7,571 nucleotides of DNA from a virus (lineage: Duplodnaviria > Heunggongvirae > Uroviricota > Caudoviricetes). The stretch covers positions 1 through 7,571 of the IMG/VR virus record IMGVR_UViG_2529293138_000004. One strand, given 5' to 3'. Position numbers and translations under genes: made by a program. The notes under the pieces were generated by a model. That model had not been told where the DNA came from and did not search any database. It saw only the letters and a program-made list of their open reading frames with translations. Below are positions 1 to 7,571 of this stretch, in pieces. The stretch's first letter is position 1. Each line of letters begins with the position of its first letter.

Positions 1-1230
1 ATGAGCAGAGCACTTAACAAACTGAGTGATACACAGCTAAGGAAAATCAACGGCACACCCGCCCAAAAAACAGCCTTTCTTAATGACGGTGGAAACCTGA
101 GCGTCAGGCATTCAACCAGCGGCCTTTTAACCTGGTATTTCACTTACAGGGCCGGAACGGGAAGGGGGGCACCACCGGAACGCATTAAGCTGGGAAATTA
201 TCCTGATCTGAGCCTGAAATCAGCCAGGGAAAAAGCCGCCCAGTGTCGCGCATGGCTGGCTGAGGGGAAAAATCCACGTCATGAGATGAATTACACCGTA
301 CAGGAAGCGTTAAAGCCGGTAACGGTTGGCGATGCGCTCACCTACTGGCTTGAGTCGTACGCAAAGGAAAACCGCGTGGATTATGCCGCCCTGAAAAAGC
401 GCCTTAATAATCACGTAATACAGCACATTGGTGCTATGCCGCTGGATAAATGCGAGCTACGGCACTGGCTGGCCTGTTTTGACCAGGTGGCAAAGCGAAC
501 GCCTGTTACTGCCGGATTCTTGCTACAGACGTGCAAACAGGCGCTTAAGTTCTGCCGGAGGCGGCGCTATGCAATCAGCAACGTTCTTGATGATATGAGT
601 GTGGCGGACGTTGGGAAAAAACCGGATATAAGCGAGCGTGTCTTAAGCACCAAAGAACTGGGCGAATTATTGCAGGCTCTGGACAAAAAAATATTCTCCC
701 CCTACTACATCGCGTTAATCCGCCTCCTGATTGTTTTCGGATGCCGGACGGTAGAACTGAGGTTATCGGAGATCAGCGAGTGGGATTTTACCGAAATGCT
801 CTGGACCGTGCCGAAAGAACACAGCAAAACGAAGGTGGCAATATTCCGGCCCATACCGGAAGCAATACTGCCGTTCGTCACGCAGCTGGTGGAGCAGAAC
901 AGGCACACGGGCTTATTGCTGGGGGAAGTGAAACAGGAAACAAGCGTGTCGCAGTACGGCAGATTAGCGCACAGGAGGCTAAAACACCCTCACTGGTCAC
1001 TGCATGACATCCGGCGCACCTTTACAACGATGCTGAACGATTTAGGCGTGGATCCTCACGTCGTGGAGCAGCTTACAGGTCATCAGATGCCAGGGATGCA
1101 ACGAGTCTATAACCATTCCCGTTATCTGGATGCGAAACGTGACGCGCTGGATATGTGGACGGAGCGGTTAGGGATACTGGCGGGAACACATGAAAACGTA
1201 ACTACCTTGCCAATAGCCAGAGAAATATAA
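1..1230 (+). CDS. int: Tyrosine recombinase / phage integrase, P4-like family (409 aa)
   Basis: ORF 1-1230. N-terminal arm-type DNA-binding region (LSDTQLR..DGGNL..WYFTYR..KLGNYPDLSLKSAREKA), catalytic box I Arg (FGCRTVEL), HDIRRTF (H-x-x-R) and C-terminal Tyr (RVYNHSRYLD). The window starts exactly at the ATG, so the true 5' end and the attachment site upstream cannot be verified. Confidence 0.9.
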   Translation: MSRALNKLSDTQLRKINGTPAQKTAFLNDGGNLSVRHSTSGLLTWYFTYRAGTGRGAPPERIKLGNYPDLSLKSAREKAAQCRAWLAEGKNPRHEMNYTVQEALKPVTVGDALTYWLESYAKENRVDYAALKKRLNNHVIQHIGAMPLDKCELRHWLACFDQVAKRTPVTAGFLLQTCKQALKFCRRRRYAISNVLDDMSVADVGKKPDISERVLSTKELGELLQALDKKIFSPYYIALIRLLIVFGCRTVELRLSEISEWDFTEMLWTVPKEHSKTKVAIFRPIPEAILPFVTQLVEQNRHTGLLLGEVKQETSVSQYGRLAHRRLKHPHWSLHDIRRTFTTMLNDLGVDPHVVEQLTGHQMPGMQRVYNHSRYLDAKRDALDMWTERLGILAGTHENVTTLPIAREI

Positions 1231-1590
1231 TTTTTTTTGCGATTTTTCAGGATGCGGACAACGTGAAACAACTAGACACAACGACGAACAACAAGGAACA
1301 AAATGGAACAACGGGTTAAAAATTAGCCATCGTGATAACCATTTGATTTTTATAGGTGTACTGTTTTTTTATACACTGGCGAATCACTCTTAAAAATATG
1401 TAAAAAAGGCGTAAAAGTAAAATTTTATGCCTTTGCATCATAATGAATTAAAAGAGTTTTTATTCTCATTCCCCCTGCTTCTGTAAAACGACCTCCGCCA
1501 GTGTTTGCCATTCCACAAACACCCTGACACAATCAGACACAACCCAATAATCCACCCAATGACTCTTTAATAAACAACAAAGGGGGAATT
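1231..1590 (+). promoter_or_regulatory. AT-rich int-alpA intergenic region with phased A/C-rich direct repeats; presumed alpA promoter/operator region
   Basis: GGAACAA at 1295-1301 and 1305-1311; GACACAA at 1275-1281, 1526-1532 and 1536-1542 (two pairs phased at 10 bp); AT-rich stretch 1380-1460 with -10-like hexamers. No promoter position could be fixed confidently. Confidence 0.3.
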
Positions 1591-1779
1591 GTGTTAAGCA
1601 CAGATCGCTTTATACGTGAAAAAGAATGTCAGCAACTTACAGGCCTGAGCCGCTCATGTCGGTACCGCCTGGAAAAAGCCGGACAATTTCCATCACGGCG
1701 TAAGCTCGGCGGTCGTTCCGTTGGCTGGTCTTTATCCGAAGTTCTGGCATGGAAGGACAGCTGCGAGGCAGTTCACTAA
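1591..1779 (+). CDS. alpA: AlpA/Vis-family prophage transcriptional regulator (62 aa, GTG start)
   Basis: GTG at 1591 preceded by AGGGGGAA Shine-Dalgarno (1581-1588). Helix-turn-helix signature LTGLSRSCRYRLEKAGQFP..KLGGRSVGWSLSEVLAW is typical of AlpA-type regulators found next to P4-like integrases. Confidence 0.85.
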   Translation: MLSTDRFIREKECQQLTGLSRSCRYRLEKAGQFPSRRKLGGRSVGWSLSEVLAWKDSCEAVH

Positions 1780-1785
1780 TCAGGC

Positions 1786-1804
1786 TGGCGGCACACAGCC
1801 GCCA
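1786..1804 (+). other. GC-rich hairpin (7-bp stem TGGCGGC/GCCGCCA, 5-nt loop) just after alpA; no U-tract
   Basis: Perfect inverted repeat 1786-1792 / 1798-1804; the following sequence is not T-rich, so it is not a canonical intrinsic terminator. Confidence 0.3.
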
Positions 1805-1831
1805 CCCATCCACTAATACAGAGATCTAACC

Positions 1832-2131
1832 ATGAATACTGGATATTCTCCCGAACAAGGGCGGGGCTTCGTTCGTCCTGAAAAACAGAATCTGCAAAAT
1901 TTTGCCGAAATTATTCCGGTTATTTCCGGCCTTACTGGCGGGAGTGAAACCAATATTGTTAACGACAGAGCGTTGCAGATGTTTGATGATAAAAAGGGAG
2001 TAAATTTAACTTACACCCCTGACGGCAATCAGAATATGAGCATTATCTCTGAGTCAGGTTTCTACAAACTAATAAAAACAAAAAGCGCCCCGTTGCCGGA
2101 GCGCCTTTGTGAACAATTAACCTGCTGCACA
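1832..2131 (+). pseudogene. BRO-N domain-like ORF (antirepressor-associated N-terminal domain); no in-frame stop until 3232, likely frameshifted or degraded
   Basis: Residues ~20-95 (NIVNDRALQMFDDKKGVNL..GNQNMSIISESGFYKLIKTKSAPLPERL) match the BRO-N pattern (..LDDDEKG....MTVINESGLYSLILRSRKPEAKKF..). Downstream the same frame becomes Cys/Ser-rich low-quality sequence antisense to a better small gene. An A8 tract at 2201-2208 lies inside the ORF; removing one A would terminate at TGA 2232-2234. Confidence 0.4.
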
Positions 2132-2319
2132 AAAAATAAATATGAGCAGTGGGATTATATCATCCAGGTGACGAAGCGCCACAATTGCCGGATAACAGGC
2201 AAAAAAAAGGCGACCGCAAAATGGTCGCCAGTGAGAACAAAGGAAATCAAACGCGTCACCAACAATGCCACATTTGCGGCTGGTGGGCAATGTGATCAGT
2301 GTGCTGGCTTGCTGGTGGG

Positions 2320-2499
2320 CTATTCCTGTTCTTTGGCCTTGCGACGCTGGCGGCGTTTGATCTCGCCTTTTGCGGCAGTAACTAAAAAACCAGCGGTACT
2401 TTCGCCAGGTTCTTTAAGTTGCTCAATATCATCCATTACTTCATGTGGGATTCTGACAGTTGTCATTTGTGATTTTGCGTTCTTTGCACCAGTTGCCAT
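2320..2499 (-). CDS. Small ribbon-helix-helix (Arc/CopG-like) putative DNA-binding protein, 59 aa
   Basis: Minus-strand ATG (complement of 2497-2499) preceded by AGGAG at 8-nt spacing; product MATGAKNAKSQMTTVRIPHEVMDDIEQLKEPGESTAGFLVTAAKGEIKRRQRRKAKEQE has an RHH-like beta-strand (TVRIP) followed by two helices. The longer track ORF (to 2667) adds a non-protein-like extension. Confidence 0.5.
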   Translation of the reverse strand: MATGAKNAKSQMTTVRIPHEVMDDIEQLKEPGESTAGFLVTAAKGEIKRRQRRKAKEQE

Positions 2500-2566
2500 T
2501 TCTGGATCTCCTAAAAATTGGTGTATGCCAGTATACGCAAAAAAAATGATAAAAAAAGGCTTGAAG

Positions 2567-2611
2567 TGTATTTCACCAGTGAGTAAATTAAAAAGCAAAG
2601 GTGAAATACAC
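2567..2611. promoter_or_regulatory. Perfect 12-bp inverted repeat GTGTATTTCACC / GGTGAAATACAC with 21-bp spacer; candidate operator upstream of the RHH gene
   Basis: Arms at 2567-2578 and 2600-2611; a third GTGTAT half-site at 2521-2526; a -10-like TATACT on the minus strand (complement of 2527-2532) between the repeat and the RHH start. Confidence 0.4.
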
Positions 2612-2764
2612 CTAAAAGAGCAACGCCCCGCAGTGCTCGCAACACATGCAGGGCGTCTAACCACCAACGATAGAAAGAGTATCGAGGTAGCTATGAGAAA
2701 TCATACCACACACCCGCAAGGGCGGGACTCGCACAACCTGAATAAAGCGGGTATGAAAAACCTG

Positions 2765-2794
2765 TTGATCGCCACTGCCAGCCAGGGCTATGAT
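2765..2794 (+). promoter_or_regulatory. Candidate sigma70 promoter (TTGATC-N18-TATGAT) facing the icd-like region
   Basis: -35-like TTGATC 2765-2770, 18-nt spacer, -10-like TATGAT 2789-2794. Sequence match only. Confidence 0.3.
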
Positions 2795-2856
2795 TCATGT
2801 GCACCTCATAAAACGGGTGCCGGGATTACCACCCCGCTGATGTCCAGGGCGATACA

Positions 2857-2878
2857 GACGCCGCACGCGTCTTTTTTT
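2857..2878 (+). terminator. Intrinsic terminator-like hairpin (GACGC-cgcac-GCGTC) followed by T7
   Basis: Stem 2857-2861 / 2867-2871, then TTTTTTT 2872-2878. It sits in the leader between the candidate promoter and the structured RNA/icd region. Confidence 0.5.
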
Positions 2879-2907
2879 GTATCGGCGCACACGCACACCT
2901 TAACAAT

Positions 2908-2987
2908 GGTGGGCTGTACGGGGCCGACTTCGGTCGGGCTGGTCACCTTGGACGCCAGTTGTGGTAACCCTGTACAGTCCACCGCCA
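2908..2987 (+). ncRNA. Candidate tRNA-like structured RNA (P1 c4 / P4 CI antisense-RNA-like) immediately upstream of the first Icd-like ORF
   Basis: 12-bp closing stem 2908-2919 (GGTGGGCTGTAC) with 2972-2983 (GTACAGTCCACC, one G-U) followed by GCCA (2984-2987), enclosing a cUUCGg tetraloop hairpin (2924-2937) and a second hairpin (2941-2969). Structure is by eye, not computed. Confidence 0.3.
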
Positions 2988-3043
2988 GCGAGCTTACCAC
3001 CTCCGGCGGTGGGGATATCCCAACGTCTAAGGAGGCTGCCAAC

Positions 3044-3232
3044 ATGGCTACTACGCCTACCCTTATACATTCTCAAACTGCCTTTATCTGGCGCTTTATC
3101 ATCTTTGGCGCGTCAGAATCCCAAATCATCCACGTCACCGCCTGGACAGAACGCGAAGCGCGTAACCATTGCCCGTCCGGTTGTGTCGCTGTATTCGCCG
3201 CCCGTATTCGTCAGGGGTCACATCATGCTTAA
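3044..3232 (+). CDS. Icd-like small protein (host cell-division-inhibitor Icd / Ash-family-like), copy A, 62 aa
   Basis: ATG 3044 preceded by AAGGAGG (3029-3035). Product MATTPTLIHSQTAFIWRF...TEREARNH...VFAARIRQGSHHA, with the W-R-F ... TERE ... FAARIR pattern recalled for Icd-like proteins of P4-type elements. A longer in-frame annotation (from ATG 2906) is possible, but the strong internal SD favours the short form. Confidence 0.65.
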   Translation: MATTPTLIHSQTAFIWRFIIFGASESQIIHVTAWTEREARNHCPSGCVAVFAARIRQGSHHA

Positions 3233-3518
3233 AAACCGCTTGCAAAAAATTATCACGGGGCTGTATGCTTCCCCCGTCGCCCACATGGCGACCGGGTTTG
3301 ACAGCCTGAATAACATAGCGGACAGCCGCTTATATTCCGATATGCGGTTTTTTTGTGTCCGTAAACCTACCCATACCCGCATTATGGCGGGGCGTAACGG
3401 GGGAGCCTTTGCGCTCGCTGGTTTCTATGTTGCCAGTCTGTCAACCCTGTTACGTCTCGCCACCATGTTTGACAGCGTAGTAGCGAGACTCCTTACATCA
3501 AACATAGGAGCCTTTCAC

Positions 3519-3689
3519 ATGGCTGTATCCGCACGCCCTTACTTTGTCTGGCGCTTTATGCAGTGCCAGGAAAAACAAACCTCACTCTTTACCGTCACGG
3601 CAACAACAGAACGCGAAGCCCGCGCCCAGTTGCCGTACGCCCATCTGATTTTCGCCGCCCGTATTCGTCAGGAGGTGTGCCATGATTAA
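3519..3689 (+). CDS. Icd-like small protein, copy B (paralog of 3044-3232), 56 aa
   Basis: ATG 3519 preceded by AGGAG (3506-3510). Product MAVSARPYFVWRF...TEREARAQ...IFAARIRQEVCHD. Exact 22-bp repeat TTCGCCGCCCGTATTCGTCAGG at 3194-3215 and 3651-3672, and ACAGAACGCGAAGC shared with copy A. An in-frame upstream ATG at 3225 gives an alternative 154-aa form. Confidence 0.65.
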   Translation: MAVSARPYFVWRFMQCQEKQTSLFTVTATTEREARAQLPYAHLIFAARIRQEVCHD

Positions 3690-4038
3690 CCTGTCACTTA
3701 TCGACCTTAACCGCATCCAGTTTCGTGAGAAATTTACCTGGCAGCTACTGGTCAATGTAGAGAATGGACGCGTGGTAAGTAATTATCACCTGCCGGATGG
3801 TGCAATTGCCGGAAGCGTTGAAGCATTGCTGGAGCTGGCAGAACGTGCGCGACTGATTAAGCCGTTAACGTGCCATCACGATGATGATCTGCATTTTACC
3901 GGACGTATGATGAGCAATTATGAAAACGGCGTTGAAGCATCCCGCGAACGTCTGCATGATGATTACTGTTTCGGCACATTGCCGGAATTTATCGAATTGC
4001 TGACCAGTTGCGGTTATCAGGTCATTCAGGGGGGGTAA
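3682..4038 (+). CDS. Hypothetical protein, 118 aa
   Basis: ATG 3682 overlaps the icdB stop (ATGATTAA) and is preceded by AGGAGG (3671-3675), indicating translational coupling. Position after c4/icd matches the ant slot of P1 immI, but no motif was recognised. Confidence 0.75.
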   Translation: MINLSLIDLNRIQFREKFTWQLLVNVENGRVVSNYHLPDGAIAGSVEALLELAERARLIKPLTCHHDDDLHFTGRMMSNYENGVEASRERLHDDYCFGTLPEFIELLTSCGYQVIQGG

Positions 4039-4040
4039 AC

Positions 4041-4292
4041 ATGCGTGATGATCGTTTTAATTCCCTGAAACAGGAATTTTCCGGCGTGTCTTATGATGCG
4101 GGTGATGCGCTTTTATCAATATCTGAAATTATGCGGGTGGCTTTTTTCTTTCTTTGCACTGATGAGCACAGGGATACAGGACTAAATATTCTTGATATCG
4201 CCTCTGATTATGCTGATTACGTGGCTGAATTTAATTTAAGAGAAAAACAGTTATTACGCGAACAGAATAAAACGCCTTCCACCGGAGAATAA
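4041..4292 (+). CDS. Hypothetical protein, 83 aa
   Basis: ATG 4041 two nt after the upstream stop, preceded by a G-rich SD (4028-4035). The track's longer form starts at TTG 4008 inside the upstream gene and is less likely. Confidence 0.6.
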   Translation: MRDDRFNSLKQEFSGVSYDAGDALLSISEIMRVAFFFLCTDEHRDTGLNILDIASDYADYVAEFNLREKQLLREQNKTPSTGE

Positions 4293-4297
4293 AAATA

Positions 4298-4585
4298 ATG
4301 AAACTTAAATATTCTGGCTTAACTGCCAGCGGCACCGCTCGGCCTGAAATCCGTAACGGCGATATTTACCGCGATAAATATGGCGGCATGGTAACGATTA
4401 AAGGCGTGGCAGAACGGCGCATCACCTACCGCCGTGAAGGTTACGAATATGATTGCGTGATGCCTGTTTATCAATTCCGGCGTGATTTCACGCTGGTAGG
4501 CCATCGTAAAGCCGTTAATCAGAAACGTGCAACAGGTTATATCCGCAAAATCCGTGAAATGCTGGTCGCAGGGGGTAAGAAATGA
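4298..4585 (+). CDS. Hypothetical small protein, 95 aa (tentatively DUF4222-like: YRD and GxV motifs)
   Basis: ATG 4298 with GGAGA upstream; contains IYRDKYGGMVTIKGV. The family assignment is from memory and is low-certainty. Confidence 0.7.
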   Translation: MKLKYSGLTASGTARPEIRNGDIYRDKYGGMVTIKGVAERRITYRREGYEYDCVMPVYQFRRDFTLVGHRKAVNQKRATGYIRKIREMLVAGGKK

Positions 4586-5979
4586 AACTGGCACCGAACG
4601 TAAAACGATTACCGAAAGATAAATACACCGATGCGATTATTTTTGCGGGTATTGATGCTCACTCATTCGCAGAGCATTACATCATTGCACAGGCCAAAAA
4701 AGCAGGCGATCCAGTCCCTCCCGTTTATCTGGGGCGTTATCAGTTAAGCGAACTGGATAACCTCCAGATTGTTGATGATGGGCGATACAGGGCGACGGTG
4801 ATACGCGCCGGAAATATTGAAGAGCCGCAGCTGTTAACCATCGCCACGAAACTGGCGATCGCCGGAGTCCAGGAGGCGCGGCTACTTTCTGAAAATTTCG
4901 AATTGCTGGAGGAATGGAGCGACCAGCTTCCACGGCTTAGGGAGACATGGGAACGCGGGGAAAGCCTGAGCAACCAGCGAAAAACCACGCTACCAATGAG
5001 CGTGGGATCTGCCGGATACGACACACAACTTGATTACGTGGTTAAGGGAATTATTCCGGCTGTATCGCTTTGCAGCATATACGGGGCGAGCGGTTCCTAT
5101 AAATCATTCCTTGCCGGATCGTGGGCGTGTCACGTTTCCACTGGCCGCCAGTGGGGATGCCGCAGGGTGGCGCATGGCGCTGTTCTCTATGTGGTTGGTG
5201 AAGGCGGTATCGGCGTTCCTCGTCGTGTAAAAGCCTGGGAGGTTGTGCACGGTGAGCAGGTGAAAAATCTGTATCTGGTAAACCGTCCCATCTTTCCGGC
5301 TGCCCCGCTTGATGTTGATGAAATGGTTATCGCTGCCCGTCAGGTGGAACGGGAAACGGGTAAACCTGTACGCATGATTATTCTGGATACGCTGGCGCGG
5401 TGCTTTGGTGGCAATGATGAAAATGATTCCCGTGATATGGGGGCGTTTATCCGTGGGTGTGACGAACTGAAACGACGCACAGGGGCCACGGTGCTGGTGG
5501 TTCACCATTCCGGCAAGGATGAAACAAAGGGAGCGCGTGGTTCCAGTGCATTTCGTGCTTCGCTGGATGCTGAATACCGGATACGCAGGGAGGACGCAGG
5601 AAGCGAAGCCCTGGTTATCTCATGCACCAAAATGAAGGATGCGGAGGAACTCAAAGAAGCCGCATATGACTTACGCGTGGTGGAGCTTTTTACCGACGCT
5701 GACGGGGAGTTAATCACGTCGCTGGTGGTGGTGGATAAGCCGCGCCCTCCCGTTGAACTGGAGCGCATCGAGGAGGCTGGCAACAAGACGGAAAACCATA
5801 CCGCGCTATGGGGATGCATACGTTCACGCACACAGAACGGCGACAAGTGCACGATCCCGCTGTTACGTGATGACATGAAAAAACTGGGGTACGAAATGAA
5901 AAACTTCCGGCGCTGGCTGTACAAGCTGGAAAAAGACAGGGTTATTCGTATCGATGGGGATGATGTAGCGCCGCTATAA
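4582..5979 (+). CDS. RecA-fold replicative ATPase/helicase-like protein (AAA_25 / RepA-like), 465 aa
   Basis: ATG 4582 overlaps the upstream stop (ATGA). P-loop region IYGASGSYKSFLAG, Walker B/sensor region MIILDTLARCFGGNDENDSRDMGAFIRGCDELKRRTGATVLVVHHSGKD, matching the pattern of AAA_25 family replication helicases. N-terminal ~150 aa unassigned; no primase domain evident. Confidence 0.85.
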   Translation: MKLAPNVKRLPKDKYTDAIIFAGIDAHSFAEHYIIAQAKKAGDPVPPVYLGRYQLSELDNLQIVDDGRYRATVIRAGNIEEPQLLTIATKLAIAGVQEARLLSENFELLEEWSDQLPRLRETWERGESLSNQRKTTLPMSVGSAGYDTQLDYVVKGIIPAVSLCSIYGASGSYKSFLAGSWACHVSTGRQWGCRRVAHGAVLYVVGEGGIGVPRRVKAWEVVHGEQVKNLYLVNRPIFPAAPLDVDEMVIAARQVERETGKPVRMIILDTLARCFGGNDENDSRDMGAFIRGCDELKRRTGATVLVVHHSGKDETKGARGSSAFRASLDAEYRIRREDAGSEALVISCTKMKDAEELKEAAYDLRVVELFTDADGELITSLVVVDKPRPPVELERIEEAGNKTENHTALWGCIRSRTQNGDKCTIPLLRDDMKKLGYEMKNFRRWLYKLEKDRVIRIDGDDVAPL

Positions 5980-6156
5980 AGTGAGGTGCAAAAGCGAGGT
6001 GTATAGAAGGAGGGCCAAAATTAGACCGCTACCCCTCACTTTTCGGCCTGTATACATCCTCAAAAGTGAGGGGCAAAAAAATACTTATGAAACACACACA
6101 TAGAAAAAGCGAAAATCTCAAGCGAGACGGAGCCAGACACTTTAAAAAGTGAGGCG
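5978..6156. repeat. Iteron array AAAG(T/C)GAGG(T/G)G (direct and inverted copies) with an AT-rich stretch; candidate replication origin
   Basis: Copies at 5978-5988, 5991-6001, 6062-6073, 6144-6156, inverted copy 6032-6043 (forming a 12-bp inverted repeat with 6062-6073), and degenerate copies at 6104-6115 and 6119-6130. Lies directly downstream of the replication ATPase gene. Confidence 0.5.
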
Positions 6157-6178
6157 AAAAACTGAGAGTTTGCGAGAA

Positions 6179-6430
6179 ATGAACAAAATGCGTAGAGACA
6201 GAACAGAGCCAAAATATAAAGCGTTAGACATGACAGAGCACGCTTTAAAGGTGGCAATCAGAACGATAGACCGCCACGCGGGGGAAGGATACGCGAAGGA
6301 ACATCCCGACATGATAAGCGCATTCATGACCACAGCAGCGGCAAACTTTGCCACGCTGACAGAACGGGAGATTGCCGAAGCGGAACAGGTAACAACCATC
6401 AACGTTAAAACCGGAGAGCAGACAGCATGA
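6179..6430 (+). CDS. Hypothetical protein (~83 aa; start ambiguous among GTG 6149, ATG 6179, 6188, 6230)
   Basis: ORF ends with a TGA overlapping the ATG of the SSB gene (ATGA at 6427-6430), suggesting coupling; no recognisable motif and weak SD candidates. Confidence 0.5.
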   Translation: MNKMRRDRTEPKYKALDMTEHALKVAIRTIDRHAGEGYAKEHPDMISAFMTTAAANFATLTEREIAEAEQVTTINVKTGEQTA

Positions 6431-6933
6431 CAGCACAGATAGCGGCTTACGGACGGCTGGTGGCTGACCCGCAGTTAAAGACCACCAGCAAGGGTACACA
6501 AATGACGATGGCGAGTATGGCGGTCCCCCTTCCGTGCAGCCAGGCAGATGACGGAGCGGCGACGATGTGGTTATCCGTCATGGCGTTTGGCAGACAGGCC
6601 GACGCACTGGCAAAACACCACAAAGGCGAACTGGTGAGCGTGGCGGGTAACATGCAGGTAAGTCAGTGGACAGGCCAGAACGGCGAAACGCGGCAGGGCT
6701 GGCAGGTTATCGCAGACAGCATAATCAGTGCGAGAACGGCGCGACCTGGCGGCAAAAAAGGCCAGCAGGGGCAGGCTACTGATGCACTGAACAGGGCAAA
6801 ACAACAGGCGGGTAACGATGATCCGTACGGGATAACATACCGTTTTAAGCAACGAGTAACAGAAGCCGGAGAAGTCCGGCTTTTTTATGCCCCAAAAAAA
6901 GCCCGGAGGGTCTTATCGGGCTTTTGCATATGA
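6427..6933 (+). CDS. ssb: Single-stranded DNA-binding protein (SSB-like OB fold), 168 aa with atypical C-terminus
   Basis: GGAGAG SD at 6414-6419. The pattern IAAYGRLVADPQLKTT..MWLSVMAFGRQADALAKHHKGELVSVAGNMQVSQWTGQNGETRQGWQVIADSI parallels E. coli SSB ([66 protein letters not shown]). The C-terminal ~25 codons read through two terminator-like hairpins. Confidence 0.8.
   Translation: MTAQIAAYGRLVADPQLKTTSKGTQMTMASMAVPLPCSQADDGAATMWLSVMAFGRQADALAKHHKGELVSVAGNMQVSQWTGQNGETRQGWQVIADSIISARTARPGGKKGQQGQATDALNRAKQQAGNDDPYGITYRFKQRVTEAGEVRLFYAPKKARRVLSGFCI
6865..6886 (+). terminator. Intrinsic terminator (GCCGGA-gaag-TCCGGC followed by T6)
   Basis: Stem 6865-6870 / 6875-6880, loop 6871-6874, T-tract 6881-6886; located inside the 3' end of the SSB ORF as currently delimited. 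Confidence 0.6.
6898..6924. terminator. Second hairpin (AAAGCCCG...CGGGCTTT) flanked by an A-tract and a T-tract; possible bidirectional terminator
   Basis: Stem 6898-6905 / 6917-6924 with an 11-nt loop; A7 upstream would provide a U-tract for minus-strand transcripts. Confidence 0.35.
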
Positions 6934-7003
6934 GGTTTTTTTGGTGCGCTGACACACATGATCGGGATAATAATTTCATAATTTGCAACATAACTCAATA
7001 TTA

Positions 7004-7052
7004 TTGCACAAAATGCAATCATGATTATAATCATGACTGGATGAACATCCAG
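7004..7052 (+). promoter_or_regulatory. Consensus-like sigma70 promoter (TTGCAC-N16-TATAAT) with overlapping palindromic operators
   Basis: -35 at 7004-7009; perfect -10 TATAAT at 7026-7031 sitting at the centre of a perfect 18-bp palindrome TCATGATTATAATCATGA (7019-7036); a second inverted repeat CTGGATG-aa-CATCCAG at 7037-7052 around the expected transcription start. Confidence 0.5.
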
Positions 7053-7087
7053 TTATGATTTTTTAAGTCGAAGAGGAATTTCTTACT

Positions 7088-7270
7088 ATGGCTGAAGAGA
7101 AAAAAGGCGGTGTTTCGGTGTACATAAGCTCCGACATCGTGGAGGCGCTCAAGGAACGCCACCAGCAGAACGTAAAGCAGGCATTGCGGCAGGACTTGAT
7201 CCACTGGCGATGGTTGAGCCGTCAACAGGCTGGCAGGTGCGCGCCTATTTACGTGCGGCGCTGGGCATGA
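7088..7270 (+). CDS. Small protein upstream of the capsid gene (60 aa as an intact ORF; possible frameshifted ~68-aa product ending at 7293)
   Basis: ATG 7088 with GAGG upstream. The N-terminal half uses preferred codons in this frame; from about 7170 the other forward frame (ending TAA 7291-7293, abutting the capsid ATG) uses preferred codons (AGIAAGLDPLAMVEPSTGWQVRAYLRAALGMNQTHGGE), while the original frame turns Arg/Trp-rich. Confidence 0.4.
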   Translation: MAEEKKGGVSVYISSDIVEALKERHQQNVKQALRQDLIHWRWLSRQQAGRCAPIYVRRWA

Positions 7271-7293
7271 ATCAGACTCATGGGGGTGAATAA

Positions 7294-7571
7294 TGGCAGG
7301 CAAAGCAACGGCACTTACCACTAATCAGCTTTTCACGTACATGAATCGCGGGGATATTGCGGAATTTAAATTCAGTCCGCTGTTTACCACGCTGTTTTTC
7401 CCGAACGTGGCGACATTCAGCACCCAAAACATCATGCTGGATACCCTGGACATTGAAGAAGTCACTATGTCGGCGTTTTGTTCGCCTATGGTTGGCAGCC
7501 AGGTACAGCGCGATAAAGGGTACGAAACCAGCACAATCAAACCTGGCTACATGAAGCCAAAGCACGAAATC
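7294..7571 (+). CDS. Major capsid protein, lambda gpE family (N-terminal 92 codons; truncated by window end)
   Basis: ATG 7294 preceded by GGGGG (7282-7286). Translation MAGKATALTTNQLFTYMNRGDIAEFKFSPLFTTLFFPNVATFSTQNIMLDTLDIEEVTMSAFCSPMVGSQVQRDKGYETSTIKPGYMKPKHEI parallels lambda E (..FKFDPLFLRLFF..VNMALYVSPIVSGEVIRSRGGSTSEFTPGYVKPKHEV). Not in the supplied ORF track because it has no stop within the window. Confidence 0.85.

Follow-up and report, generated by a model that had tools for sequence, protein, structure and literature searches.

What is the function of three small open reading frames (ORFs) that are chained to one another between the immunity module and the replication gene of a short viral record? 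The stretch of DNA that raises this question, referred to as the window throughout, comprises all 7,571 nucleotides (nt) of the IMG/VR record IMGVR_UViG_2529293138_000004 (positions 1 to 7,571), and all coordinates count from its first letter. The three frames, ORF1, ORF2 and ORF3, occupy positions 3682-4585 and encode 118, 83 and 95 amino acids (aa), respectively. An earlier note, based on the letters of the window, had proposed that they are co-expressed with the neighboring genes, that they take the place of ant in the immI region of P1 and of the epsilon region of P4, and that they are candidates for manipulation of a helper phage or for anti-defence functions, although no motif could be assigned to any of them. 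The analysis described here identifies the window as a phage-inducible chromosomal island (PICI) of Escherichia coli and of the Gram-negative type, from the roxA/phoQ site, and ORF1-3 as conserved protein-coding genes under purifying selection. The segment that contains them is best explained as the middle of the early operon of this island, an account that, taken as a whole, is put forward with moderate confidence.

A phage-inducible chromosomal island at the roxA/phoQ site

The order of genes along the window is int, alpA, two isrK/C4-RNA and icd-like units, ORF1, ORF2, ORF3, a RepA-type helicase, iterons, the gene for a single-stranded-DNA-binding protein (SSB) and a capsid module. On E. 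coli contigs that encode proteins identical to ORF1, an island of ~10 kb is located between roxA and phoQ and contains an integrase, AlpA, an opposite-strand YlcI/YnfO gene, Phage_ASH/icd-like ORFs, ORF1, ORF2, a DUF4222 gene, an AAA_25 gene, a small ORF and SSB, followed by a lambda-E-type capsid protein (Phage_cap_E), a decoration protein (HDPD) and a Nu1-like protein (Nu1). The complete ~10-kb island is visible between roxA and phoQ in four loci (L003-L006), with capsid, decoration and Nu1-like genes only, and two of these (L005 and L006) are 99.9% identical to the window over its full length. The same site is occupied by Sp7 of O157 Sakai (CP-933C, O-island 51), the integrase of which is 99% identical.

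These islands carry int, alpA and a rep gene followed by an iteron origin, are unidirectional, measure ~10 kb, within the ~10-15 kb of PICIs, occupy a dedicated site and are free of tail and lysis genes, as PICIs are, and the assignment to the Gram-negative type follows from the match of their organization with that described in PMC6092414. Like EcCICFT073 and the capsid-forming EcCIEDL933, the island of the window has the succession of int, alpA, early small ORFs, rgdR, pri/rep, ori, ssb and perC or capsid, the size of ~10 kb and an attachment site dedicated to such islands. It differs from the characterized island that was compared, Sakai Sp7, in possessing the ORF1-ORF2 cassette, and from the capsid-forming PICIs, which have an HK97 set, in its lambda-E-type capsid set with decoration and Nu1-like proteins. 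Matches to C4 and isrK in islands of this kind have been noted earlier (PMC10111431).

Coding status and conservation of the three ORFs

Conservation was counted in 54 related IMG/VR loci. ORF1 is intact in all 54, a match to ORF2 is found in 47 (as an ORF of at least 73 aa in 45 of them and of only 50 aa in one), and a homologue of ORF3 is present in every locus, with a coverage of at least 90% in 53 of the 54 and an extended ORF of 80 aa in nine loci and of 38 aa in one. In pairwise comparisons with relatives, the ratio of non-synonymous to synonymous substitution rates (dN/dS) is 0.24-0.44 for ORF1, 0.18-0.69 for ORF2 and 0.29-0.43 for ORF3. Because these ratios are below 1 and intact copies recur across loci, ORF1-3 are genes and not chance frames. 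The earlier note had allowed that the ORFs might lack conservation or turn out to be ordinary replication accessory proteins; all three are instead conserved in related loci, with dN/dS below 1, and searches of Pfam, NCBIfam and PHROG gave no confident homology to replication accessory proteins for any of them. The idea that they are spurious or decaying frames of a defective prophage, to which the NCBI annotation of ORF1 and ORF2 as mere hypothetical proteins might lend itself, has a negligible probability given the dN/dS values of all three, the intact copies in dozens of loci from several genera, the strong Shine-Dalgarno (SD) sequences with their precise overlaps and the experimental phenotypes of the ORF3 family (PMC3378721).

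A gene chain behind a predicted C4/icd gate

The positions and sizes of the three ORFs are those given in the earlier note, and the four junctions, the features of which were taken directly from the sequence, are all located on the plus strand. The leader frame named here icd-like ORF 2, which ends in ...TGC CAT GAT TAA with its stop codon at 3687-3689, overlaps ORF1 (ATG at 3682-3684) by the 8 nt ATGATTAA, and the SD sequence GGAGG precedes ORF1 at 3671-3675. ORF1 terminates with TAA at 4036-4038, and after the dinucleotide AC the ATG of ORF2 follows at 4041, with a run of seven G residues at 4029-4035 as its SD. The TAA of ORF2 (4290-4292) is separated by a 5-nt gap from the ATG of ORF3 at 4298, which has the SD GGAGAA at 4283-4288, and the TGA of ORF3 (4583-4585) overlaps the ATG of the replication protein, Rep (4582-4584), as ATGA, with GGGGG at 4571-4575 ahead of it. 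Chaining by overlapping or abutting start and stop codons and the presence of good SD sequences, both of which had been claimed before, are thus borne out at ORF1, ORF2, ORF3 and Rep. The 8-nt overlap of icd with ORF1 was also found in a Hafnia-related satellite locus (L083), which a scan of viral contigs with the Hafnia protein had retrieved.

A scan for intrinsic terminators with more than 5 stem pairs returned none on the plus strand between 2873 and 7028; a single weak terminator-like candidate of 5 pairs is located at 4753-4767 on the same strand, and a hairpin follows ssb at 7029-7060. A scan for promoter-like sites returned none on the plus strand within 3000-6900. The junctions, together with the lack of a strong internal terminator or promoter, make it very probable, on sequence grounds, that ORF1-3 are co-transcribed with icd and the replication ATPase, in agreement with the co-expression proposed earlier.

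The putative gate is formed by RNAs and leader frames that precede ORF1 on the plus strand. The first immunity unit is headed by an isrK-like RNA (2801..2877; Rfam RF01394, 65 bits against a gathering threshold of 50) with its terminator, a terminator-like hairpin at 2856-2872 found in the terminator scan, and continues with copy 1 of the C4 antisense RNA (2902..2989; Rfam RF01695, 75.3 bits, gathering threshold 45) and icd-like ORF 1 of 62 aa (3044..3232; NCBIfam NF033153, phage_ICD_like, E=2e-16). The second unit consists of a c4-a1b1 target element for C4 copy 2 (3263..3312; Rfam RF03163, 46.8 bits), C4 copy 2 itself (3380..3467; RF01695, 73.2 bits, gathering threshold 45), which would be the gate of the operon that holds ORF1-3, and icd-like ORF 2 of 56 aa (3519..3689; NF033153, E=1.7e-15), so that each C4 copy has an icd-like ORF behind it. 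The loops of C4 copy 2, CTATGTT (3425-3431) and CTGTCAA (3438-3444), are exactly complementary to the target sites a2 (AACATAG, 3501-3507) and b2 (TTGACAG, 3469-3475) in the stretch 3469..3510, and complementary sites are also found upstream (TTGACAG at 3298-3304 and AACATAG at 3312-3318). Site a2 overlaps the SD AGGAG (3506-3510) of icd-like ORF 2. Taken together, the gene chain and its predicted C4/icd gate are well supported by the sequence.

The RNA and icd-like unit is thus tandemly duplicated in the window at 2801-3689 (isrK, C4 and icd-like ORF 1, then a1b1, C4 and icd-like ORF 2), and closely related islands have either one or two RNA/icd units (L003 and L004 against L005 and L006). 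A nominal ORF of 466 aa at 1832-3232 spans these RNAs as well as the oppositely oriented YlcI/YnfO gene, and for this reason most probably does not represent a single gene; over its first ~35 residues it matches the start of AntA-type proteins.

The layout of this region is known from other systems. In P1 immI, the c4 RNA blocks the translation of icd and hence the expression of ant. The window shares with immI a C4 RNA with a/b targets on both sides, one of them over the icd SD, and a short icd-like leader the stop codon of which overlaps the next start, and ORF1 stands in the place of ant, so that the comparison with the ant slot made in the earlier note holds. Unlike in immI, the genes behind icd are devoid of antirepressor homology (none of ORF1-3 matches an antirepressor family of Pfam or PHROG), the gated unit continues into the replication genes, and the RNA/icd unit is duplicated and has an isrK-like RNA in front. 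The comparison with the epsilon region of P4 holds as well: the left operon of P4, with the order vis, CI RNA, epsilon, orf151, orf106 and alpha, has in common with the window an AlpA/Vis-type regulator, an immunity RNA of the C4/isrK clan and three small ORFs with 8-nt overlaps ahead of a replication protein. The proteins themselves differ, since P4 epsilon belongs to PF25738 (E=4e-50) and orf106 to DUF5375, neither of which is matched by ORF1-3, and alpha is a primase-helicase of a family other than that of the window Rep. No match of ORF1-3 to PF25738 was obtained at E<=0.1, the hhalign probability against epsilon was 0.1-0.2%, and the three proteins show no resemblance to P4 epsilon, P1 Ant or the AntA/Bro families. 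In the isrK-orf45-anrP region of Gifsy-1, an isrK RNA, for which the window has a match at 2801-2877, precedes a short leader ORF and an effector, and experiments have demonstrated that translation of orf45 is required, via coupling, for that of anrP (PMC4825925). Unlike the gate proposed here, IsrK of Gifsy-1 activates in trans instead of repressing, and its effector AnrP is antirepressor-like and unrelated to ORF1.

ORF3 and the RgdR family

ORF3 (4298..4585, plus strand) is a basic protein with an isoelectric point (pI) of 10.2 that matches phrog_285 and the Pfam family PF13973 (DUF4222), the latter with E=3.1e-25 and 87.9 bits (cut-off 27) over profile positions 1-52 of 53. The earlier statement that none of the ORFs carries an assignable motif is therefore incorrect for ORF3; for ORF1 and ORF2 it stands, as searches of Pfam, NCBIfam, PADLOC and PDB sequences were empty for both. 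ORF3 is 62% identical to ECs1581 (RgdR) of Sp7/CP-933C, the founding DUF4222 member, which is likewise small, basic and encoded immediately upstream of rep with a 4-nt overlap, in an island that shares with that of the window the integrase and the roxA/phoQ site. RgdR comprises 99 aa and has RGD at residues 20-22, whereas ORF3, with its short C-terminal tail, comprises 95 aa and has N20-G21-D22 at these positions; downstream, Sp7 encodes a DUF927 primase-helicase and the window a RepA/AAA_25 helicase. RGD is not conserved across the DUF4222 family either, so it marks the regulator of enterohaemorrhagic E. coli (EHEC) and not the domain family.

RgdR has been described to bind DNA non-specifically, to activate LEE1 and type III secretion, to repress motility and to raise Congo-red binding (PMC3378721), and the engineered substitution R20N results in a weaker activation of type III secretion (PMC3378721). 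Of the properties of ORF3, the basic pI agrees with such DNA binding. Judged by the established hns phenotypes, the effects of RgdR on LEE1, motility and Congo-red binding are reminiscent of a loss of silencing by H-NS. According to PMC6092414, RgdR is encoded by all analyzed E. coli PICIs. Family membership and this literature support the view that ORF3 is a basic DNA-binding accessory protein or regulator, which would be produced in step with Rep. In related loci the DUF4222 gene overlaps the Rep gene by 4 nt in 53 of 53 cases, and such an overlap is seen with Reps of the AAA_25 helicase, DUF927 primase-helicase and primase-family types alike. A relation between the length of the C-terminal tail and the type of Rep was considered and discarded: the 95-aa form precedes DUF927 as well as AAA_25, and the 99-aa form precedes AAA_25 as well as the primase. 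The N-terminus of P4 orf151 (L091, 7440-7895) aligned with DUF4222 over 47 columns at an hhalign E=0.003 and a probability of 10%, with no support from Pfam. This match, the best in the comparison with P4 proteins, is not convincing, and a remote kinship at the equivalent place of the operon is unconfirmed.

A DUF4222 ORF (Pfam E=3e-19) was also observed in prophage e14 and in SfIV-like phages, where it is located within the 3' half of ymfM in another frame (at 3502-3681 in L027, E. coli K-12 e14, at 2938-3159 in L025 and at equivalent positions in L026 and L092-L094) and ends 11 nt into the O/ymfN replication gene. The ymfM gene (sfiC) is annotated as "cell division inhibitor YmfM", and the RefSeq record of E. 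coli K-12 has no DUF4222 annotation there. In a comparison of six sequences, three variable sites fall in nt 1-179, all of them synonymous when read in the ymfM frame; of the eight in nt 180-339, every one is non-synonymous in that frame and seven are synonymous in the DUF4222 frame. This pattern indicates that what is conserved of the 3' half of ymfM is its DUF4222 product. Filamentation has been reported as the phenotype of ymfM (bioRxiv 10.1101/2020.11.19.390815). The published pBAD-ymfM clone would include nearly all of the DUF4222 ORF, and so the product behind the filamentation may need re-examination.

ORF1, ORF2 and the poly-G tract between them

ORF1 (3682..4038, plus strand; phrog_340 and phrog_2512) is an acidic protein (pI 5.1) composed of a tandem duplication of a beta-beta-beta-alpha module of ~53 aa. 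Its two halves align with each other with an hhalign probability of 97.6% (E=3.5e-12), both AlphaFold2 (AF2) models, albeit at low confidence, fold each copy into a beta-hairpin followed by a short strand and a helix, and single-copy proteins of 70-87 aa are also known. The best-conserved part is the N-terminal M-x-N-L-S-x-x-D-L-N. An exhaustive profile search among 1.84 billion cluster representatives retrieved only 50 proteins for ORF1 and ORF2 together, and tblastn searches of 50,697 phage genomes gave no match for either of them. Named homologues of ORF1 come from Escherichia, Salmonella, Cedecea, Hafnia and Serratia only, and the protein is restricted to satellites of Enterobacterales. 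In the Hafnia-related locus L083 the ORF1 homologue, whose family is 36% identical to the window protein, likewise directly follows icd. A resemblance to HicB/UPF0150 suspected from the repeat pattern of ORF1 was rejected at an hhalign probability of 0.5%, and a protein of 1558 aa with ten matches to the ORF1 profile proved to be a repetitive Cys-rich surface protein, the match being compositional. The PHROGs families of ORF1 and ORF2 are listed without function, no solved structure for either was found by a PDB sequence search, NCBIfam contains no match to ORF1-3, and no PADLOC family was matched at E<=0.1 by ORF1, ORF2, ORF3 or a fused ORF1-ORF2.

ORF2 (4041..4292, plus strand; phrog_24341 and phrog_2512) is acidic as well (pI 4.5) and predicted to be all-helical, with helices in a low-confidence AF2 model. 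Its frame is open back to TTG at 4008, and ATG 4041 is taken as the start because all homologues begin with MRDDRF. Behind the near-invariant N-terminus MRDDRFNSLKQEF, the remainder of the protein varies and occurs in several allelic forms. Identity to the window is 88% for ORF1 and 82% for ORF2 in one related locus (L001), 86% and 65% in a second (L002), and 88% and 54% in a third (L009), against which the synonymous substitution rate dS is 2.1 for ORF2 and 0.15 for ORF1. The far greater divergence of ORF2 than of ORF1 in the same islands places a recombination boundary at the ORF1-ORF2 junction.

This junction contains the G homopolymer at 4029..4035 (plus strand), which serves as the SD of ORF2 and is, as the comparison of relatives demonstrates, a tract of variable length that sets the end of ORF1. 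Among the window and 56 other loci in which it was compared, relatives with the same context have runs of six G residues (G6) in 35 loci, G7 in eight, G8 in three, G9 in one and G10 in two. With G6, with G9 and with a form of G7 whose next base, T, is replaced by G (6 loci), ORF1 reads through and overlaps the ATG of ORF2; with G7, the form of the window, and G10, it ends 2 nt ahead of this ATG; and with G8 (3 loci) the two ORFs are fused. The variation in length could reflect real hypermutability or, in part, homopolymer sequencing error. Fused ORF1-ORF2 proteins of 192-203 aa exist, those of 192-196 aa in several clusters, and domains similar to ORF2 are also found behind a different N-terminal domain.

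It may be asked, then, whether ORF1 and ORF2 constitute one gene, split by a frameshift in the poly-G run or joined in part of the products when ribosomes or RNA polymerase slip on G GGG GGG. The fused proteins and the G8 variants that join the frames speak for this explanation, as does the fact that G7 is an in-frame X XXY YYZ heptamer on which a -1 slip enters the frame of ORF2. The separate arrangement nevertheless predominates (G6 in 35 loci, G7 in 8, and G9 with G10 in 3, against G8 in 3), in all forms ORF2 keeps a separate ATG and SD, ORF1 exists without ORF2, and the ORF2-like domains have been combined with other N-terminal domains; one gene in this sense is accordingly improbable. A programmed -1 frameshift on the G7 run was considered as a candidate in its own right and rejected, since runs of 6 to 10 residues occur and G6, the most frequent allele, cannot fuse by a -1 slip, which hits a stop codon at once; there is thus no conserved frameshift signal, and a conserved programmed frameshift is unlikely. 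ORF1 and ORF2 are linked and their fusion is tolerated, but the partnership is not obligatory.

The variable slot and the replication region

A survey of about 65 loci revealed a constant order of int, alpA, icd unit(s), variable small ORFs, DUF4222, the N-terminal domain of Rep, its catalytic domain, a small ORF and SSB. The slot between icd and DUF4222 is occupied by the small-ORF families a76, b73, ORF1, ORF2, c77, d75 and f61, five of which are clearly acidic (net charge -5 to -7), with b73 at about -2 and f61 at about +1. In Sakai Sp7, three other small ORFs (ECs1578-1580) replace ORF1 and ORF2, and ORF1/ORF2 are in turn combined with differing Rep types and packaging modules.

The replication protein of 465 aa (4582..5979, plus strand) matches PF13481 (AAA_25) with E=3e-42 and phrog_2850 over its full length. 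It consists of an N-terminal domain of ~130-145 aa (window 4582-5001) and a RepA-like AAA_25 helicase. The N-terminal domain, for which no Pfam match was obtained, is 42-51% identical across Reps of the AAA_25, DUF927 and primase types (window; L002 and L007-L010) and is always the part that follows DUF4222. Origins of PICIs are located downstream of rep (PMC6092414), and the putative origin of the window at 5975..6166 comprises three direct copies of the iteron AAAGTGAGG, ~84 bp apart, and an inverted one (families D1, I1 and I2 of the repeat search).

Two single-nt differences distinguish the distal part of the window from L005 and L006. At 6828 the window is one G short in a G run, so that the last part of ssb is read in another frame; the ssb ORF extends to 168 aa here and has lost its ...DDPYGDNIPF tail, a tail presumably present in the 140-aa form of L003-L006, to judge from the L005 DNA around the indel. 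At 7173 it is one A short in an A run within a small ORF (7088-7270), which has 60 aa here and 68 aa in L003-L006. Both losses may be mutations or sequencing errors.

Proposed mechanism and competing explanations

The explanation that we consider best, and slightly favor when early operon, gate and roles of the proteins are judged together, is the following. In the quiescent island, C4 RNA would pair with a2/b2 and cover the SD of icd-like ORF 2. In the absence of icd translation, ribosomes would not be delivered to ORF1 and the untranslated message would be prone to polarity, so that ORF1, ORF2, ORF3 and Rep would be silent together. They would be released jointly when AlpA induced by the helper drives transcription, or on entry into a cell without C4 RNA; AlpA has been demonstrated to drive expression of the PICI operon in EcCICFT073 (PMC6092414). 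Through the ATGA overlap, ORF3 would be made in fixed proportion to Rep and would most likely serve as a nucleic-acid-binding accessory protein or regulator of the early and replication programme, and any influence of ORF3-type proteins on motility or on host promoters such as LEE1 would arise as a side effect. ORF1 and ORF2, which are acidic and free of any enzymatic or DNA-binding signature, would form a dispensable and exchangeable satellite-specific cassette and most likely work by binding proteins: one another, and in addition a target from the helper or the host, the variable part being ORF2. That they are an exchangeable acidic protein-binding cassette is what we infer from these properties.

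Several observations weigh against this account. Operon structure and coupling are deduced from the sequence; RNA folding of the four junctions predicts stabilities that do not exceed those of shuffled sequence (z from -0.09 to +1.1), and as there is no structural sign that ribosome-binding sites are masked, coupling would have to proceed by termination and re-initiation. Short DUF4222 genes of 59-60 aa have been found upstream of icd, not beside Rep, where they overlap the end of an AntA/AntB antirepressor gene (at 3462-3641 on the Klebsiella plasmid pVA126-339, L088, and at 1281-1463 in a circular E. coli record of 12 kb, L089), and hence DUF4222 is no obligatory partner of Rep. This AntA/AntB-adjacent site is a second conserved position of DUF4222 in PICI-like elements, and the 12-kb "plasmid" record itself has the appearance of a circular satellite. 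In 8 of the about 65 loci surveyed and in the Hafnia-related L083, ORF1 is present but ORF2 is not, so the two need not act as a pair, and some of the fused forms may stem from sequencing errors in the homopolymer or from chimeric assembly. Finally, structure prediction and fold searches, which the earlier note had proposed as a check, yielded low-confidence AF2 models of ORF1 and ORF2 and no significant fold match, and thus no biochemical handle.

Among the alternatives, the one that survives best, as a possible though rather unlikely explanation, is that ORF1, together with ORF2, does for the satellite what Ant does for P1, AnrP for Gifsy or epsilon for P4, as a C4/icd-gated inactivator of the helper repressor or of a host defence protein. 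As the first gene after an RNA-gated leader, the stop codon of which it overlaps, ORF1 is positioned like ant, anrP and epsilon (PMC4825925), and this position is kept between the window and the Hafnia-related L083 in spite of only 36% identity. The small size, the acidity and the satellite-specific occurrence of the proteins, outside the 50,697 phage genomes searched, would fit such a role, and the many ORF2 alleles behind a conserved N-terminus are what might be expected of a specificity determinant in a conflict. However, the proteins have no similarity to PF25738, AntA/AntB, Bro, KilA or any phage protein, Gram-negative PICIs have been described as helper-induced via alpA with no reciprocal derepression described (PMC6092414), and many islands do without ORF1 and ORF2, including Sakai Sp7 with the same integrase and site.

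A somewhat smaller chance is given to the explanation that all three are accessory proteins of the island replicon, involved in origin recognition, helicase loading or copy-number control. The coupling of DUF4222 to Rep in 53 of 53 loci, the N-terminal domain common to all downstream Rep types, the SSB gene and iterons that come next in the same operon, and the lambdoid phages, in which a DUF4222 ORF runs into the start of the replication gene O as well, are all compatible with it. Still, the cloned rep and ori of EcCICFT073 suffice for plasmid maintenance (PMC6092414), ORF1 and ORF2 are missing from many islands with the same Rep types, DUF4222 is distant from Rep in other PICIs, and the searches of Pfam, NCBIfam and PHROG revealed no homology of ORF1-3 to known replication accessory proteins.

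A bolder extension of these ideas, which we regard as quite unlikely, would combine ORF1, as conserved core, with ORF2, as hypervariable subunit for specificity, into a new satellite-specific effector in the C4/icd-gated "ant slot", directed at a helper repressor or a host immunity protein, and would make DUF4222 a general host-modulating partner of the replication initiators of phages and satellites. If this were true, Gram-negative PICIs would act on helper or host defences at entry and induction, and not merely wait.

Implications for satellite biology

The kind of element and the family of ORF3 were known already, and ORF1 and ORF2 are hypothetical proteins found in satellites only; what is provided here is an orderly description, with no surprise. 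The understanding of how Gram-negative PICIs sense and manipulate their helpers is only partial, and the majority of their early genes lack annotation. With the early operon favored here, three of these genes can now be placed behind a predicted C4-RNA/icd gate that would also control replication. ORF3 among them is assigned to the RgdR family, whose influence extends to the expression of virulence genes in EHEC; ORF1 and ORF2 stand out as a compact, satellite-only cassette that can easily be deleted or expressed. More generally, the stretch between icd and rgdR is occupied by small genes, acidic for the most part, that replace one another from island to island, and, if such acidic genes act on helpers or on defences, it would be a place to seek new inhibitors.

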